DNA of 64,000 nt from Savitreella phatthalungensis (taxonomy: Eukaryota). Under the pieces are notes generated by a model. It was not told the origin of the DNA, made no database searches, and was given only the letters and a program-made list of their open reading frames with translations. Positions within the stretch are counted from its first letter, which is position 1. Every line of letters starts with the position of its first letter. Positions 42,755 through 50,222 of this stretch are shown piece by piece. A program made the position numbers and the translations under genes. The DNA is taken from assembly GCA_051599415.1 (NCBI GenBank), contig AP039704.1, positions 62,001-126,000 of the forward strand, written 5' to 3'.

Positions 42755-43254
42755 TGAGTGAATGCAACAGATTGTCGCTGAAGATCCTGCTGAACAAAGT
42801 CAGCTTGATGCTGCTAGCGTCATATATCTTTAAGTTATGCCTGCGCAGAGGATGAGGATGACTGGCGTAGGCGTCAGAGGGATGAGAAGGTGGATGCGTC
42901 GTGAGTCTAAGTGCTAGAACTTTACAGAGCAGAGACTGAAACCGGGTATGTAACGTGTAGATTGAATTTGGTCGTTTGATCTTATCAGATTTTATTGGAA
43001 TATGTATCAAGCACCTATTGAAACTTCTAACTTGATTAAAATGATCTCTTCAAATTATTGGTTTGAAATCTATCACCAATCATTAGTTGAATTGATTGAG
43101 GTCACACATGCACAGAAGGCATGTTATACGGCTTCATCATGGTCGAGCAGTCAGCTCGCTCCTTTGATTGACATTAGACAACGGCAATGATTTCTCTCGT
43201 TACTTGAATCGATCCTGACTTAACGATAAACTGGTTGAAGCTACTGAACGGTCA

Positions 43255-43743
43255 GACTGACGGCGCGGCTATCAAGCGCTGTGGCTTCTCGCTCGGCCGT
43301 GTCCTTGGAGGACCGGAGGAGGTCGCGGCGGAGTGCGTTGGGTAAGGAGTCCGACCGCGGACTCCGTTGCCGAGTTTTGCGCTGGTCCGACGTCATCTAC
43401 TTGAGAAAGTCGCATCGCTCAGCCATGAAAAGCCGGACTTCTTCCTCACATGGAAGGAGGCCATCCAGATGCTGGCCGCCCCGGCCGAAGTGAGGAAGAA
43501 GTCCGGATTTCGAAGCGCCGGCCATCATCTGGGTGGCCTCCTTCCATGTGAGGAAGAAGTCCGGATTTTCCTGGCTGAGCGATGCAACTTTCTCAAGTAG
43601 ATGACGTCGGACCAACGCAAAACCCAGCAACGGAGTCCACGGTCGGACTACTTACCCACCGCTCTCTGCCCCGACCTCCTCCGGTGCCTCCGAGGCCACA
43701 GTCGAGCGAGAAGCCACATCGCTTGATAGTCGCACCATTAGTC
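43255..43743. repeat. Long gene-derived inverted repeat (arms 43255-43478 and 43519-43743, 40-nt loop)
   Basis: Manual alignment: about 24 differences in about 225 nt; perfect runs of 28 and 31 bp; arms encode peptides homologous to the 44154-45107 C-terminus. Confidence 0.95.
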
Positions 43744-44153
43744 ACTTACTCAGTCTCATCGATCAGTCTCATCATTCAAGTCAATCGTAGTCGTTCAGTC
43801 TCGTCAATAGATTTCATCATTCAATTCAATCGTACTTGTTCAGTCTCTTCGTCTCACCGTTCGAGTCCATCGTTCATTGTTCAGTGTCAACGTTCAGTCT
43901 TTTCATTCAGTGTCATTGTTCGGTCGCTAAGCGGGGTAGACACCTGTGGTGAAGTCCAAGACTAGATTCTGGTGCTGAAATGACGGAAGCGACAGCGTAC
44001 GATAGTCTCACCATTAAGTCTCACTGTCGATTCTTCTCTCAGCACATGGATTGATGCTGGTTGAATGCATGGACTGAACGGAGAGACAGAACGATCGGAA
44101 TGAACGATAAGACTGATTGAAGCTACTGATCGGTTAAACTCAACGCGCGGCTA

Positions 44154-45107
44154 TCACGCGCTGTGGTTTCTCGCAAGACTGTGGCCTTGGAAGACCGGAT
44201 GAGGTCGCGGCGGCGACCTTTGATGGAGCCCGACAGTGGACTCAGTCGCGGGATTCAGCTGGAGTGGGACTACAGCTGCCGGAGACGTTGCCGACTCCGC
44301 CGGCGCTTCGGACGGGGCCAGCTCCTCGGTGGCGTCCCGCCATGTCAGGAGAAAGTCAGGAGTTTCCTGACTGAGGGACTCGATACGCTCAAACACTCCG
44401 GAATAGCCGATCACAGAGATTCGTACGTTGCAGGTCACTGGAATCCCCTCTTCCAAGCCTCGAAATGCCTCGACTGTCAAAGCAGGAAGGACGAACGTCG
44501 ATACAGCCGGCGTACGACGTGCCACAACTTTCAGGTCGAAAATTCCTGAGGCGGCAGAAACTGCCTGATCGAGGCCACGCGGCGTGGCAGCCAAAACATC
44601 CACCGTGTCGGATACTGACCGATGAGCCGGCTTGATCGGAGTCGGCCATCTCCTTTGGAAGAACCTGGCTTCGACCATTGACACTGCCGCCGCCGGGTAC
44701 TCCACTTCGACGAGACCGTTTGTCAAATAAAACTCGATTGAGCCACTCCTGAATGCGGAACAGTTGTGGTCGCTAGGTCCTTGGTCGCGCAGCACCTTGA
44801 TGAAGCTTTCGATCGCCAGCCAGGCCGAGTGTACCGTCAGGTTCACTATGAACCAATCCTGTGCGAATGCATGGGATCTTGTGATAGTGTGGTCCAGGAA
44901 GATGAACGCGACGACCGGAAAGTTAAGTAGGGTTGACAACGCGAGAGCCAGTGGCAGGTATGGCACAAGTAGTAGAATGGATACGCTCATCACCCATAGC
45001 AGGTCTAATCCGGCTGTCATGATCGAGGATAATCGGTTGCGTGGTGAGCGACTGGCGCTGCCGGTATCAGCTGCTCCGCTGGCGGCGGGATCGATTGTCG
45101 TGGCCAT
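44154..45107 (-). CDS. Orphan protein, 317 aa, with an N-terminal hydrophobic (1-2 TM) region
   Basis: Uninterrupted ATG-initiated ORF; hydrophobic stretch LLWVMSVSILLLVPYLPLALALSTLLNFPVVAFIFL; locally duplicated homologous fragments. Confidence 0.65.
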   Translation of the reverse strand: MATTIDPAASGAADTGSASRSPRNRLSSIMTAGLDLLWVMSVSILLLVPYLPLALALSTLLNFPVVAFIFLDHTITRSHAFAQDWFIVNLTVHSAWLAIESFIKVLRDQGPSDHNCSAFRSGSIEFYLTNGLVEVEYPAAAVSMVEARFFQRRWPTPIKPAHRSVSDTVDVLAATPRGLDQAVSAASGIFDLKVVARRTPAVSTFVLPALTVEAFRGLEEGIPVTCNVRISVIGYSGVFERIESLSQETPDFLLTWRDATEELAPSEAPAESATSPAAVVPLQLNPATESTVGLHQRSPPRPHPVFQGHSLARNHSA

Positions 45108-47267
45108 CTTGAAACGTAATTTAGATTGACGACAGGTCTTACTCGTCTTCTTCTTCTCCGTCTTGTGTCAGCGAGCTAGCTCTATGCTCCCGCTGTCTGA
45201 CGATGGAGATAGCTCCTGGCGTCAGTGCGAGAGGATCAGGATGTCTCGCAGCAAAGCCAGAGGGTCGAGCGAAGAGGTGACGCGTCGTTGGCAACTGTGG
45301 GCTAGAGGATCATAGGGGCAAAGGTTTACTGCATCGAGTACCTAACATGTGAAATTGAGATTGAAAATGATCAATTGCATTCATTCAATTGAATTGGATC
45401 TCGGCAGCAAAGACCAATCTCAATTAAATTTTAATAGACGTCAGGGATCACAAGATCAAAATTAAATTTGAATTTAGGCATTAATTAGAAATGATCGATA
45501 CAACTCACAGTCGATCACCAGAGTCAAAGACACCACTCGGTCAGCCCTTGCACGTGAGTGTACAGACCATTACATACCGCTCCTCTCTCGCTTGTACCTT
45601 CTAGCCTGTCGGTGTAGGTACTCAAGCTTCTGATCATGCTCCGTACTTCTGATGCGTTCCTGTGTGATGTCCCGGTATCAAAAATCGTGGTGAAGGGCCA
45701 AGTCAACACACTTCAGGCATGGATTCTCGCCTGCTTGGCTTACACGTCACGGCCAAGTCGACGTCGAATGCATAATTGTTAAGAGCAATTTGATGGTACA
45801 GCGGCGGGTCTGAGCGAAGACGACTGTCAAGATCACAATGCGCTGTGTCCGCGAGCATCGATTCGAGCGTGTGTAGCGTAATGCCTCGAATGTTGCTCTC
45901 GTCCTCGAGAGGATATGTAGGAAAGGCTCATACCAGTCGATCAATGGTGAAGCTATCCCATTCTTCACGCAACTGAAGTGACTGCTTGTACGTCGGTTGA
46001 TTCTTGAGTCCATGGGCGAGCGCGTGGAAAGCGGGAGCACAAGCACAGGCACCACGACGGGCCTGAGCACAAGTATCGACGGTGGTGGGCACGGAGACGA
46101 TTGCGCTGTGTTACGAGCTGGTCTGCAATGGCCTGCGCTGCGCTCGTACACTCGTCGCCTTCTAACTTCGCTGCCGTTCAATCGGACTAGACTTCTCTGC
46201 GATAGACTGATCCTTTGTTGATGTCTTGCTGAACACTTGCTAGGTCGCGTGTCTCCCGGCCAGTAATTTCGGAGGTTTTCAATTCAGTCGCATAGACTTA
46301 CTGAAGTCACGGGTGCTTGCGACTATTCCCAGCTCGATTGACACGAGAATCGTCGCGTCGCCCAAAATCCCAGCTGCTGTTCCCCTTGAAGCGCTTGAGA
46401 GACTAGCAAGGCTTCAAAAGCTGGTCGATGTGACCGAGATTTCACCTGTGAGCGACTAGACCATGCGTCCGACGCGTCATCATGATCGTTGATGCTGGAG
46501 AGGATTGCCACATCGTCGTGAGTAGTTGTCATGAGATATTTGTCTCTCGGCTAGCAGAGCGGACCGCTCTTGAACGCGACTCCGCGACCTTCAGGCGCAC
46601 ACGTCAACATGATCTCTACTGAGAACCAAGTCCCCAAGATTCCCGCAGGCCACTCTCACGGTCTCGATCATACGCACCAAGGCATGTCAAGTCGTGTCGT
46701 TTACGAGCGCAGGAGTTGTTTGATGGTGGCGGTCTCGTTTGAGGTTGGAGCGCTCGATGATGGCGGCGGCGTCGAGATCATTGTGCTGGCAGAACACCAG
46801 AAGCATCTAGCACCTTGACGGTCGGCACAGATGTTGATTAAGTACTTGTAGAGACCTGTACTTAGACCTGAGGCCGATCCGATTGGTATGGACGAGTACG
46901 AGTGTTGACCGCACGGGCTTAAGTGATCTTGCACAGAATCAGCCGAGCTTTGCACGAATTCATGCAAAAAGGCCGTCCGTCTTTGAAAAGGCGCTTGGTC
47001 GGAAGGGATGCACAAGAATTCAGATACGAAGATTGATTCCGATGACTTCTCGCAAAGACACTCCGACTCCAGCACGAGCTGTGTCATCGTTCGATCGACA
47101 AAACTGGAGCTCGACTCGCAGGTTTGCAAAAGGCCTCTGAAGATATCGCGAACGCTCAGCCTTGCGGGACGCATCGACGCTAACACATACTTTGTTGTGC
47201 CCTACAAGAGGTCCGCGGTATTTCCCTTTTTAGTTCGAAGCTCCACTACTCTCTGCTTCTCCATCTG

Positions 47268-48308
47268 ATGGGCGTCCTTGGCTTATATGCGCATGCTGAC
47301 ATCTCGGTCGATCTGCGCACGGGCAGAGATGTCCCGCTTCCCCTTGCGGTCGATGGTCAGTGTCAACTCGCTATCGTGGTTGATCTACCATTGGAGCAGA
47401 GGCTGAAGGACGACGCTAGCCAAGACGCGATCGAGCTGATCTTTGACCTGATCCAGCCCGTGATTCGCGCGCGGATCATAGACCACGGGCAGGCGATGAG
47501 TATGGAAGAATGGTGCGGCGGTATACCCGTCCTCCAAGGCTTCAGGATCGACTCGCAGGGACAAGATTACGCCCGACACAGGTTTCCCGAATGTTTCGAT
47601 CTGCTCGATCTCAAGCTATCGATGAGATTCGATTGCCGCCGGCCGCCATCGCCCGTCTACGTTTCTCGCGGCTGTGGTCGCAGGATGCTTGCCCGATTTC
47701 ACAACGGTGCACTGTGCCTTCGTATAGAGAAGGACAGTAGGCCGCTCGATCCCTTATATAAAGCGCTCGATCAATCTTCCATAGGCCGATGCAACAAGCT
47801 CAAAGAGGATCAACCGCTCGTCCGCCACCTGATCGGCCTCTCGGTAGATCGCCAGAACTTCCAGTCGCCTGGGAGCTATTTGTGCCTCCGCGTGGGTGCG
47901 TATATCAACCAACGGAGATTGCAACATTTTCAGGTGGCGCTCTACAAGAAGTCTCTCGCTCGCGGATTGCTCGATAGCAAACTGATCAAGTCGTACAAGG
48001 AGTTCTGCGCAAAGGCGAGTGCGATGAACCTCGACAACATCCTTGTCAGACAATCTCGAACGCAGGCCACCTTGATCGCCTGGCAGTCGAATCCTGGCAA
48101 TCTTCACCGCGAGCTCGTCCAATACCATGACTGCCTATCAAGCTTGCCGACGTACGAGGAAGTGGTCGATAAGGATGGACCGTCGGAGATTTTGAATACT
48201 AGACGGTGCTTCCGTCGCACCCTCACGCTGTCCAAGTACGACGATGATCTGTCGGCGTGGGCGCAAGCGGACCTCATTCCCGGCACCAACGAGGTCATCG
48301 ACATCTGA
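47268..48308 (+). CDS. Orphan hypothetical protein, 346 aa
   Basis: Long ATG-initiated ORF with globular-looking composition; no family recognised; LPTYEEV resembles a PY motif. Confidence 0.55.
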   Translation: MGVLGLYAHADISVDLRTGRDVPLPLAVDGQCQLAIVVDLPLEQRLKDDASQDAIELIFDLIQPVIRARIIDHGQAMSMEEWCGGIPVLQGFRIDSQGQDYARHRFPECFDLLDLKLSMRFDCRRPPSPVYVSRGCGRRMLARFHNGALCLRIEKDSRPLDPLYKALDQSSIGRCNKLKEDQPLVRHLIGLSVDRQNFQSPGSYLCLRVGAYINQRRLQHFQVALYKKSLARGLLDSKLIKSYKEFCAKASAMNLDNILVRQSRTQATLIAWQSNPGNLHRELVQYHDCLSSLPTYEEVVDKDGPSEILNTRRCFRRTLTLSKYDDDLSAWAQADLIPGTNEVIDI

Positions 48309-48690: not shown

Positions 48691-49910
48691 CATGCAGCTG
48701 TGACTGTGCGTCTCCCGTGTCTGTGTAGCTCGGAATCTCTGCATCATAGATCGTCCGAGAAGATGGGAAAGAGAGTGTAGGACTTGTTTCTGGATGAGAC
48801 GCGTTTGAGGTCTAGCGCAACGACAGAGAGCGATCTGCCGTCGGGTTTGTGATGCCGTCTGGCATTTGCGATTTGGGAAAGCCGGCGCGCGCCATGTACA
48901 CCGCTGGGCGATTCCACGTCTGTCGAGAGAGAAGAAAAGTGCTCCGAGGGATGACTAGGAAGCGACGTAGATAGGAGCTTGGAAGCACTCTCTCTGAGAT
49001 ACGCATTGACCGGTCCTGAGTACTTGGATGTGTGTGATGACTTCAATTGGCGCGCGCGTGTGCAGTGTTGGTGACGTGGGGATAACGCTTGAGCGGTCGT
49101 GCTAAAGGGCGAATGCGAATCGCAGATCTCTGCATCACAGATCGTTTGAGAAGACGGGAAAGAGATTGTTGGACTTGCCCTTGGCTGAGGTGCGTCTGAG
49201 GTCTAGCACGACGACGATGGAACTTGAACAGTGATTTCTGTCGAGTCTGTGACGCTGGCCGGCATGTCAATATGTGAAAGCCGGCGCGCACCAATGCAGA
49301 GCGCTTGGGCGATTCTGGAGCAACAATCCTGCCACGTCCCCGAGAGGGAAGAGAGTGCTGTAATCGATGATCAGGCAGCGAGGTAGATAGCAGTCTGGGA
49401 GTACTCGCTCTGAGATACAAATGATTTTCTCAGGGTGTTAGGATACATGCAGCCGTGACTGTGAATCCCCCATGTCTGTGTGTAGCTCTGGATTTCTCGG
49501 TTCGGGAGGCCATCGCAGATTGTCCGCGTGGACGGGGAAGAGATTGCCGGACCTTGTCCGGGTGATTGGGAGTGCGATGACGGAGAGCGATCGGCCGTCG
49601 AGTCTGTGATGCCGGCCGGTATGTCGACATAAGGAAAGTCGGCGTGCATCATGCAGAGCGCTGGGCAATGCAGGAGCAATAATCCTCAACATCCACCGAG
49701 AGAGAAGAAAAGTGCTCTGTGGGATGGCTATGGGAGCGACGTAGACAGCGGCTTCGAGTGGCCTGCTCTAAGATATGATTGGCGAATCTGAGTGTTTGGG
49801 TGTATGTGATGGCGTCGATTGGCGCGCGCGCGCGTGTGCCAGTGATTGGTGATGTGGGGATGACGCTTGATCGGTCGAGCCAAAGAGTCACAGCCGAATC
49901 GCAGATCTTT
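48691..49910. repeat. Degenerate tandem triplication (unit about 320-460 bp)
   Basis: Recurring blocks GGGAAAGAGA, GAAAGCCGGCGCGC, GAGAGAGAAGAAAAGTGCT, GTAGATAG; CATGCAGC(T/C)GTGACTGTG at 48691 and 49446; GAATCGCAGATCT near 49120 and 49900. Confidence 0.85.
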
Positions 49911-50222
49911 GTCGATAAGAGAGAGAAAGAGAGAGACGAAGTTGTTGATGATGAGGAGGAGTCAAGGGAAGGACGAGTAACTTCTTTGGACGGTGAAGAG
50001 TGACACTCCAGCTTTGGATCGATTCGAGTGATTCAATTGTGCATCTTCAAAACAATCTCGTCAGTTATCATGCAATGCAGTGCAAGACGAGAGACTCACT
50101 CGTATGGGAGAGTTACGGATCATAAATAAATAAGAGGGTGTCTGTAGGTCTACGACGAGAGAAGGAATAGAAGGTTTAGTAACTAGAGAGAGAGAGAACT
50201 CTATGTGTTGGCGACAGGGTGT

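Follow-up and report, generated by a model that had tools for sequence, protein, structure and literature searches.

A 489-base fold-back in an orphan gene cluster of Savitreella phatthalungensis, probably a scar of nested template switching

In a 64,000-nucleotide window of the Savitreella phatthalungensis genome (assembly GCA_051599415.1, contig AP039704.1, positions 62,001 to 126,000 of the forward strand), bases 43255-43743 form a long fold-back, hairpin B, which is probably a template-switch inverted duplication: the remnant of a third member of an orphan gene family, destroyed in place and now drifting. An original prediction, made from the DNA letters and their open reading frames, had proposed that it arose when a member of the adjacent orphan family was duplicated in inverted form, and our results support this proposal. 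The genome comprises 12.7 Mb in 27 contigs, with telomere repeats at both contig starts examined, and a protein encoded on contig C2 has 100% identity to one labelled Savitreella phatthalungensis. The species is a leaf yeast of the Taphrinales, for which no ascospores and no disease on tested leaves are reported (PMC8877625). Coordinates are those of the window unless a contig is named.

Hairpin B belongs to a cluster of three related orphan loci, of which A is broken, B is a hairpin remnant and C is intact. The surrounding features are as follows:

44154-45107, − strand: gene C, an intact 317-aa orphan with hydrophobic N-terminal helices and the sole candidate target in the genome
41967-42754, − strand: gene A, a broken paralog of C with a truncated 114-aa ORF at 42410-42754
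42116-42333, no strand assigned: hairpin A, a second fold-back inside gene A (218 bp, z −21)
42901-43100, no strand assigned: AT-rich island on the upstream side of gene A, at a distance of 155 bp from hairpin B, to its left
45301-45500, no strand assigned: AT-rich island upstream of gene C

Genes A and C are homologous at residues 3-64 and 252-301, each with a shuffle p of 0.003, and more weakly at residues 97-106 (p = 0.02); 36 frames were tried, yielding seven alignments with p < 0.05, and the other four look like low complexity or chance. The island at 42901-43100 resembles the region upstream of gene C, in gene A's orientation. It is a putative promoter and a possible source of divergent transcription into hairpin B; a separate gene B promoter on the + strand was looked for and not found. 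Hairpin A, which lies about 1 kb left of hairpin B and is absent from the original prediction, occurs once in the genome and contains perfect runs of 37 and 24 bp, a 10-nt bulge and a loop of about 16 nt. It is built like hairpin B, with a mid-gene segment copied backwards and a short stretch of a later segment copied in front of it.

The family is an orphan in every collection searched: it has no Pfam family and no homolog by word index, its profile recovered only itself from 1.84 billion proteins, none of 222 candidates from JGI metagenomes was confirmed, and no relative was found in the ESM Atlas. Single-sequence fold prediction for gene C was unusable (pLDDT 39), and a likeness to wtf drivers was considered and dropped as there was no Pfam hit. 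Within the genome, a distant paralog of gene C on contig C2 (135573-136931; E = 0.009 in the genome search, pairwise E = 6e-6) has the last 70 residues and a hydrophobic stretch at the N-terminal end in common with gene C, and likewise has no homolog outside this genome. Sequencing run X4, which comes from another study, contains a piece matching 42215-42315 with unlike sequence on both sides, which implies that this segment also exists without the fold-back, and two versions of the gene A 3′ end (20 differences in 435 bases and 18 in 217). The second of these (window 41835-42051) has an unrelated flank and represents an extra family member in another strain. Because of these pieces, copy number and state of the orphan family appear to vary between strains, as judged from single contigs at depth 2-4 that may hold errors.

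Two other repeat-bearing loci were observed in the window. At 48691-49911, 5 kb from hairpin B, lies a decaying tandem array of about three degenerate direct repeats, each 360-420 bp long and 70-75% identical to one another; it adjoins an orphan ORF at 47268-48308 (346 aa, no Pfam match). A 417-aa ORF at 33939-35192 on the + strand has internal repeats (D4, D6, D8, D16) split by KR motifs and no Pfam match; by eye it looks like a Kex2-processed repeat protein, and an antisense frame of equal length overlaps it.

Hairpin B itself, with gene C standing in for its ancestor, resolves into the following parts:

43255-43478, no strand assigned: left arm, identical to the right arm at 201 of 225 columns
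43519-43743, no strand assigned: right arm, from arm alignment and RNA fold
43479-43518, + strand: loop, in which the gene reading continues from the left inner arm, with a templated insert interrupting it
43490-43510, + strand: the 21-nt loop insert, an exact copy of 43548-43568, that is, of the inner segment in antisense (exact-match map)
43517-43522, no strand assigned: GCCGGC palindrome, at the fold-back point
43389-43394, no strand assigned: GACGTC palindrome, close to where inner and outer parts of the left arm join, with its partner at 43603-43608
43395-43489, + strand (gene sense): inner segment I, matching residues 238-271 of the gene C protein at 53% identity (tblastn)
43609-43828, + strand (gene sense): outer segment O of the dead paralog B together with its 3′ flank F, from flank alignment to gene C
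43208-43388, − strand: inverted copy of O and part of F, 80% identical to 44103-44249, in the place of B's 5′ part
43742-43925, + strand: short degenerate tandem copies of a 3′-flank motif (repeat family D13; slippage)

Across its 489 bases the arm identity is 89.3%, and the 24 differing columns comprise 14 transitions, 9 transversions and 1 gap; together with two perfect runs, one of 31 bp and one of 28 bp, and a loop of 40 nt, this reproduces the anatomy originally described (arms of about 225 nt at about 89%). Folding of both strands, which had been suggested as a check, gave −421.5 kcal/mol on the + strand (z −35, with 0 of 100 shuffles equally stable) and −429.6 kcal/mol on the − strand, so the locus does have a long fold-back stem. 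The peptide matches reported for the inner and outer arms to the ORF at 44154-45107 hold by tblastn, and the reported likeness of 43222-43365 to 44103-44252 was recovered as 43222-43370 against 44103-44249 (80% over 150).

The fragments had also been described as inverted relative to their order in the gene, which is true within each arm, where inner and outer parts are opposed, but not of the locus as a whole: left inner arm, loop, right outer arm and right flank follow gene order on the + strand. Read in this way, segment I, the loop and linker, a backward copy of I, segment O and the 3′ flank are colinear with gene C. Segment O corresponds to gene C residues 285-305 and on, and 43511-43522, 12 nt at the end of the loop, equal gene C 44299-44310 inverted, which makes them a gene-sense linker. 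Beyond the right arm, 43700-43828 aligns to 44180-44047 at 67% over 135 columns, extending the likeness to the gene C flank about 85 bp past the stem; no likeness to the distal flank of gene C was found left of about 43210. Because of this colinearity and flank likeness, the donor would be a gene at the hairpin's own spot, most simply on the + strand and tail-to-tail with gene C. A donor paralog elsewhere had been inferred previously, but a DNA search of the genome with hairpin B returned four matches, namely the query, its inverse and two to the end of gene C, all of them self or the adjacent gene.

Palindromes are a known class of assembly artefact, and an artefact, or the termini of a foldback transposon, was weighed as an explanation. 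It is very improbable and largely refuted, and hairpin B is confirmed as real. The arms differ at 24 of 225 columns, a divergence of 11% that an assembly artefact would not produce; they are fragments of host genes; and no other copies of the hairpin A or hairpin B sequence were found in the genome, as a multi-copy foldback transposon or MITE would require. Contigs of run X1, from which the assembly may have been made, cover the locus with 0 differences, the perfect 31-bp run being collapsed at about double depth (75 versus 40-45). In run X4, a contig over 43310-43518 spans left arm, inversion junction and loop and differs at 11 of these 209 bases; the 15 letters that follow the loop look, by eye, more like 43371-43385 than like the other arm. 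In run X2, neither 42212-42441 nor 43380-43789 is covered by a contig and depth between them is low, and this run was not used as evidence, and run X3 has no piece on either hairpin among the pieces listed.

From this anatomy we infer an order of events. Gene B would have started on the + strand, tail-to-tail with gene C. A polymerase would have copied segment I and 40 nt of linker, turned back at GCCGGC, copied I backwards and rejoined near GACGTC, before segment O, in what is termed a '3-2-1-4' switch, which yields an inverted repeat without inverting the spacer (PMC5453318). A small extra detour would have left the 21-nt insert in the loop. The new stem could then have primed fold-back synthesis, in which O and part of the 3′ flank were copied over B's 5′ part, and this extension would have lengthened the arms to 225 bp and deleted about 240 codons. 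A smaller lesion, made by the same two steps, would have struck gene A.

Several observations bear directly on this scheme. With gene C as the ancestral stand-in, an inverted copy of adjacent sequence replaces part of the original, and microhomology is present at the switch points (GCCGGC, GACGTC and a CGAAG repeat on either side of the insert, at 43486-43490 and 43511-43515), although GACGTC is only presumptively the switch point and exact junction. These junction microhomologies and the templated insert match the four-point model, and the template switches described by Loytynoja and Goldman in 2017 resemble hairpin B in that the opposite strand is copied before a return, the spacer keeps its orientation and microhomology of 2-6 nt occurs at switch points (PMC5453318). 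Unlike those events, as described there, hairpin B involves about 90 bp and then about 180 bp, nested rounds and a large deletion (PMC5453318). Its scale is nearer to FoSTeS/MMBIR. No intact B that would fix the four points was found, and run X4 shows only short loose ends.

Two results fit the scheme less comfortably. The inner stem is more intact than the outer one (80/85 versus 115/134; Fisher p = 0.075), the opposite of what the two-step order predicts in the absence of homogenisation of the inner part. Inside the stem the arms are 86-94% alike; immediately beyond it, the left flank has 83% identity to gene C and 63% to the right flank. The closeness of the left flank to gene C also fits a different, and in our view unlikely, origin, in which two head-to-head paralogs, one on the − and one on the + strand, had their 3′ ends fused by deletion and their arms then made alike by conversion. 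Such a fusion would explain the drop in identity at the stem boundary, as well as the direct repeat (D10) that the left outer part forms with the gene C end, but the duplicated inner segment, the templated insert and the palindromic junctions would need an added template switch, and the divergence of the right flank is explained by local slippage (D13). Under nested template switching, both awkward results would be accounted for if the arms were homogenised close to the loop and the right flank changed by slippage.

We next considered how unusual such structures are. A fold-back scan of 864,000 bases of the 12.7 Mb, a non-random sample made up of the window and 80 stretches from contigs C16, C1, C2 and C3, returned four rows: hairpins A and B, a C16 pair of solo LTRs, and a pairing of the right arm with gene C. 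Twin fold-backs in adjacent paralogs, compared with one (the solo LTRs) in the other 860 kb, count against a mere scar; the rough probability of two fold-backs within 1 kb is 0.002 under independence, calculated post hoc. A hotspot of fork stalling would predict twin hairpins, and selection for silencing would predict them equally. Also against a scar are the retention of Argonaute with an intact-looking DEDD set and the run X4 contig, which does not enter the other arm after the loop. An Rfam search of 41000-46500 gave six matches at E ≤ 1, none of which reached the gathering score; the miRNA matches, all scoring far below it, reflect the stem alone.

The solo LTRs belong to a 425-bp family with TGTC...GACA ends whose 144 matches fall into a single cluster on each of the 27 contigs, and 5-bp target duplications were seen in two stretches (L108 and L110). 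These per-contig clusters are probably centromeres. At C16:280700-281335, one full solo LTR and an inverted partial one form a 458-bp fold-back (z −24). Between two copies of the LTR, 13 of 22 transitions fall at CpG. This fold-back was considered as a functional RNA (16 G-U on the + strand versus 5, p = 0.027) and rejected, the LTR strand being T/G-rich and the bias not trusted.

The mutation pattern of hairpin B offers little sign of a maintained RNA. Its mismatches comprise 6 G-U pairs on the + strand, 8 on the − strand and 9 transversions (binomial p = 0.79), indicating no strand bias, and CpG sites account for 8 of the 14 transitions (p = 0.005 with all columns as reference, 0.067 with G/C columns). 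In run X4 the arm has diverged at 11 of 209 bases compared with 65 of 1,464 in six other pieces (p = 0.59), a comparison that leaves out the paralogous piece and six unlisted pieces. Five of eight listed X4 differences carry the right-arm letter, which probably reflects uncorrected pairing decay in this lineage; a flipped loop would read alike. With one low-depth contig and 23 mismatches, these neutrality tests have low power and are weak singly, and none appears to point to a maintained RNA. Nor is there a near-perfect target in this genome, where gene C is the only match and is 64-73% identical to the arm segments: among 469 21-mers of hairpin B, none matches gene C perfectly, 3 do so with one mismatch and 19 with two, and all 198 21-mers of hairpin A have six or more mismatches.

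A survey of the genome for RNAi machinery, another of the checks originally proposed, gave a split answer: Argonaute is present and a canonical Dicer was not found with four models. The single Argonaute gene (C4:668669-669571; E = 4e-80) has the N, L1, PAZ, L2, MID and PIWI domains and a DEDD tetrad that reads as intact. The RNase III set consists of a Pac1 ortholog (C2:871650-871922) and two mitochondrial-ribosomal-like proteins; the Pac1 ortholog, with one dsRBD match, is the only catalytic-looking RNase III found, and no duplicated Dcr1-type gene was seen. Seven RNase III matches were examined as possible Dicer queries and none has the Dicer domain set. No canonical Dicer was detected with PF00636, PF14622, PF03368 and PF24995, for which the controls were prokaryotic and no true Dicer served as query, and no RdRP was detected with one model, which had no eukaryotic positive control; both are likely to be absent from the genome. 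The genome also has two C5-methyltransferase genes (C4:619977-620789 and C27:141851-142345), with frames of 508 aa and 2,085 aa, of which we take the 508-aa frame to be RID/Masc1-like and the 2,085-aa frame DNMT5-like.

A possible partial loss of RNAi within the Taphrinales, with Argonaute kept and Dicer and RdRP not found, would differ from Taphrina deformans, for which two reports (PMC3648899, including Table S2, and PMC4159005) list Dicer, RdRP and Argonaute. Incomplete RNAi sets are reported from some species of all main fungal lineages (PMC5751038), and in budding yeasts Dicer is described as derived from RNT1 (PMC3579876). A search of the open-licence literature, mostly at the level of titles and abstract starts, brought up nothing about hairpins or RNAi genes of Savitreella.

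The original prediction took hairpin B for a hairpin RNA (hpRNA) that silences the gene family. This inference is not supported, given that no Dicer or RdRP was found, the mismatches have no strand bias and 0 of 469 21-mers match gene C perfectly; it is weakened rather than refuted. In its most specific form, which we regard as unlikely, hairpin B would be read on the + strand from gene A's AT-rich promoter to B's 3′ flank, gene A mRNA would carry hairpin A, and Pac1, acting as a single-domain Dicer of the budding-yeast kind, would feed the one Argonaute against gene C or closer paralogs in other strains. The full domain set of Argonaute and the presence of two hairpins within one gene family favour this, the two X4 versions of the gene A 3′ end mean that closer targets may exist in other strains, Dsim-hp58 is a reported precedent for birth one gene from a progenitor (PMC10317233), and the RNT1-derived Dicers of budding yeasts keep the reading alive (PMC3579876). 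Against it stand the missing canonical Dicer and RdRP, the single dsRBD match of Pac1 compared with the second dsRBD described for S. castellii Dcr1 (PMC3579876), the poor fit of the 21-mers from both hairpins, and the lack of either strand bias or slowed divergence. It is unlikely that a Taphrinales yeast without Dicer or RdRP that has kept a slicer-type Argonaute silences an orphan, copy-variable membrane-protein family via Pac1-cut fold-backs, with two hairpin births serving to silence remaining or incoming members, in the way that Drosophila hpRNAs act on meiotic drivers. If this were true, the C16 LTR fold-back, at its centromere-like cluster, would feed the same Pac1 route.

Likeness to known systems is partial. 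The Drosophila hpRNAs (Dsim-hp58, Nmy/Tmy, hp-pncr009/825-Oak) likewise have a long imperfect stem from a young, fast-evolving family and adjoin a family member, but are defined by Dcr-2-dependent 21-22-nt RNAs with fully complementary targets (PMC10317233). Hairpin B has no perfect 21-mer to its only target, no canonical Dicer was found, and because the target test fails in this genome and the class is defined by RNA we do not file it as an hpRNA. Budding-yeast RNAi is similar in that Argonaute is kept and canonical Dicer apparently lost, and differs in that only a Pac1 ortholog with one dsRBD match was found here (PMC3579876). The Pac1-cleaved stem-loops of fission yeast share the enzyme family and the subphylum, and a nascent stem-loop would be a substrate, but those stems are described as regulatory and within live genes, whereas hairpin B is a 225-bp stem in a dead gene for which cleavage is predicted (PMC8421224).

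The inverted partial gene duplication seen in hairpin B also recalls the birth of plant MIRNA loci by inverted gene duplication and maize Mu killer, both of which need DCL enzymes. Another unlikely reading is a cis element kept after an accidental birth, either a Pac1-dependent terminator, with the stem lying between divergent transcription from gene A and the convergent gene C, or an inverted repeat that attracts DNA methylation to the cluster. Its position between the AT-rich island and the gene C 3′ end would suit such an element, the presumed DNMT5-like and RID/Masc1-like genes are present, and the decay leans to CpG, but no constraint is seen, a far shorter stem would suffice, and with G/C columns as reference the excess at CpG is marginal (p = 0.067). 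For the terminator version, a Pac1 ortholog is present, and Pac1 is reported to terminate transcription at stem-loops (PMC8421224). Returning to the template-switch scar, if either hairpin is transcribed, Pac1 would be at hand and the default outcome would be destruction of the RNA rather than siRNA, because the fission-yeast ortholog is described as cutting nascent stem-loops, leading to termination and nuclear decay (PMC8421224).

As a scar, the locus is a clear, small case of nested template switching that killed two neighbouring paralogs, useful for dating and for mechanism and involving no new system. The genome is also a test case, with an Argonaute apparently without canonical Dicer or RdRP compared with all three reported for Taphrina deformans (PMC3648899). 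Long fold-backs are rare in the scanned part of the genome, and these hairpins could show whether a Pac1-type enzyme replaces Dicer outside the budding yeasts.
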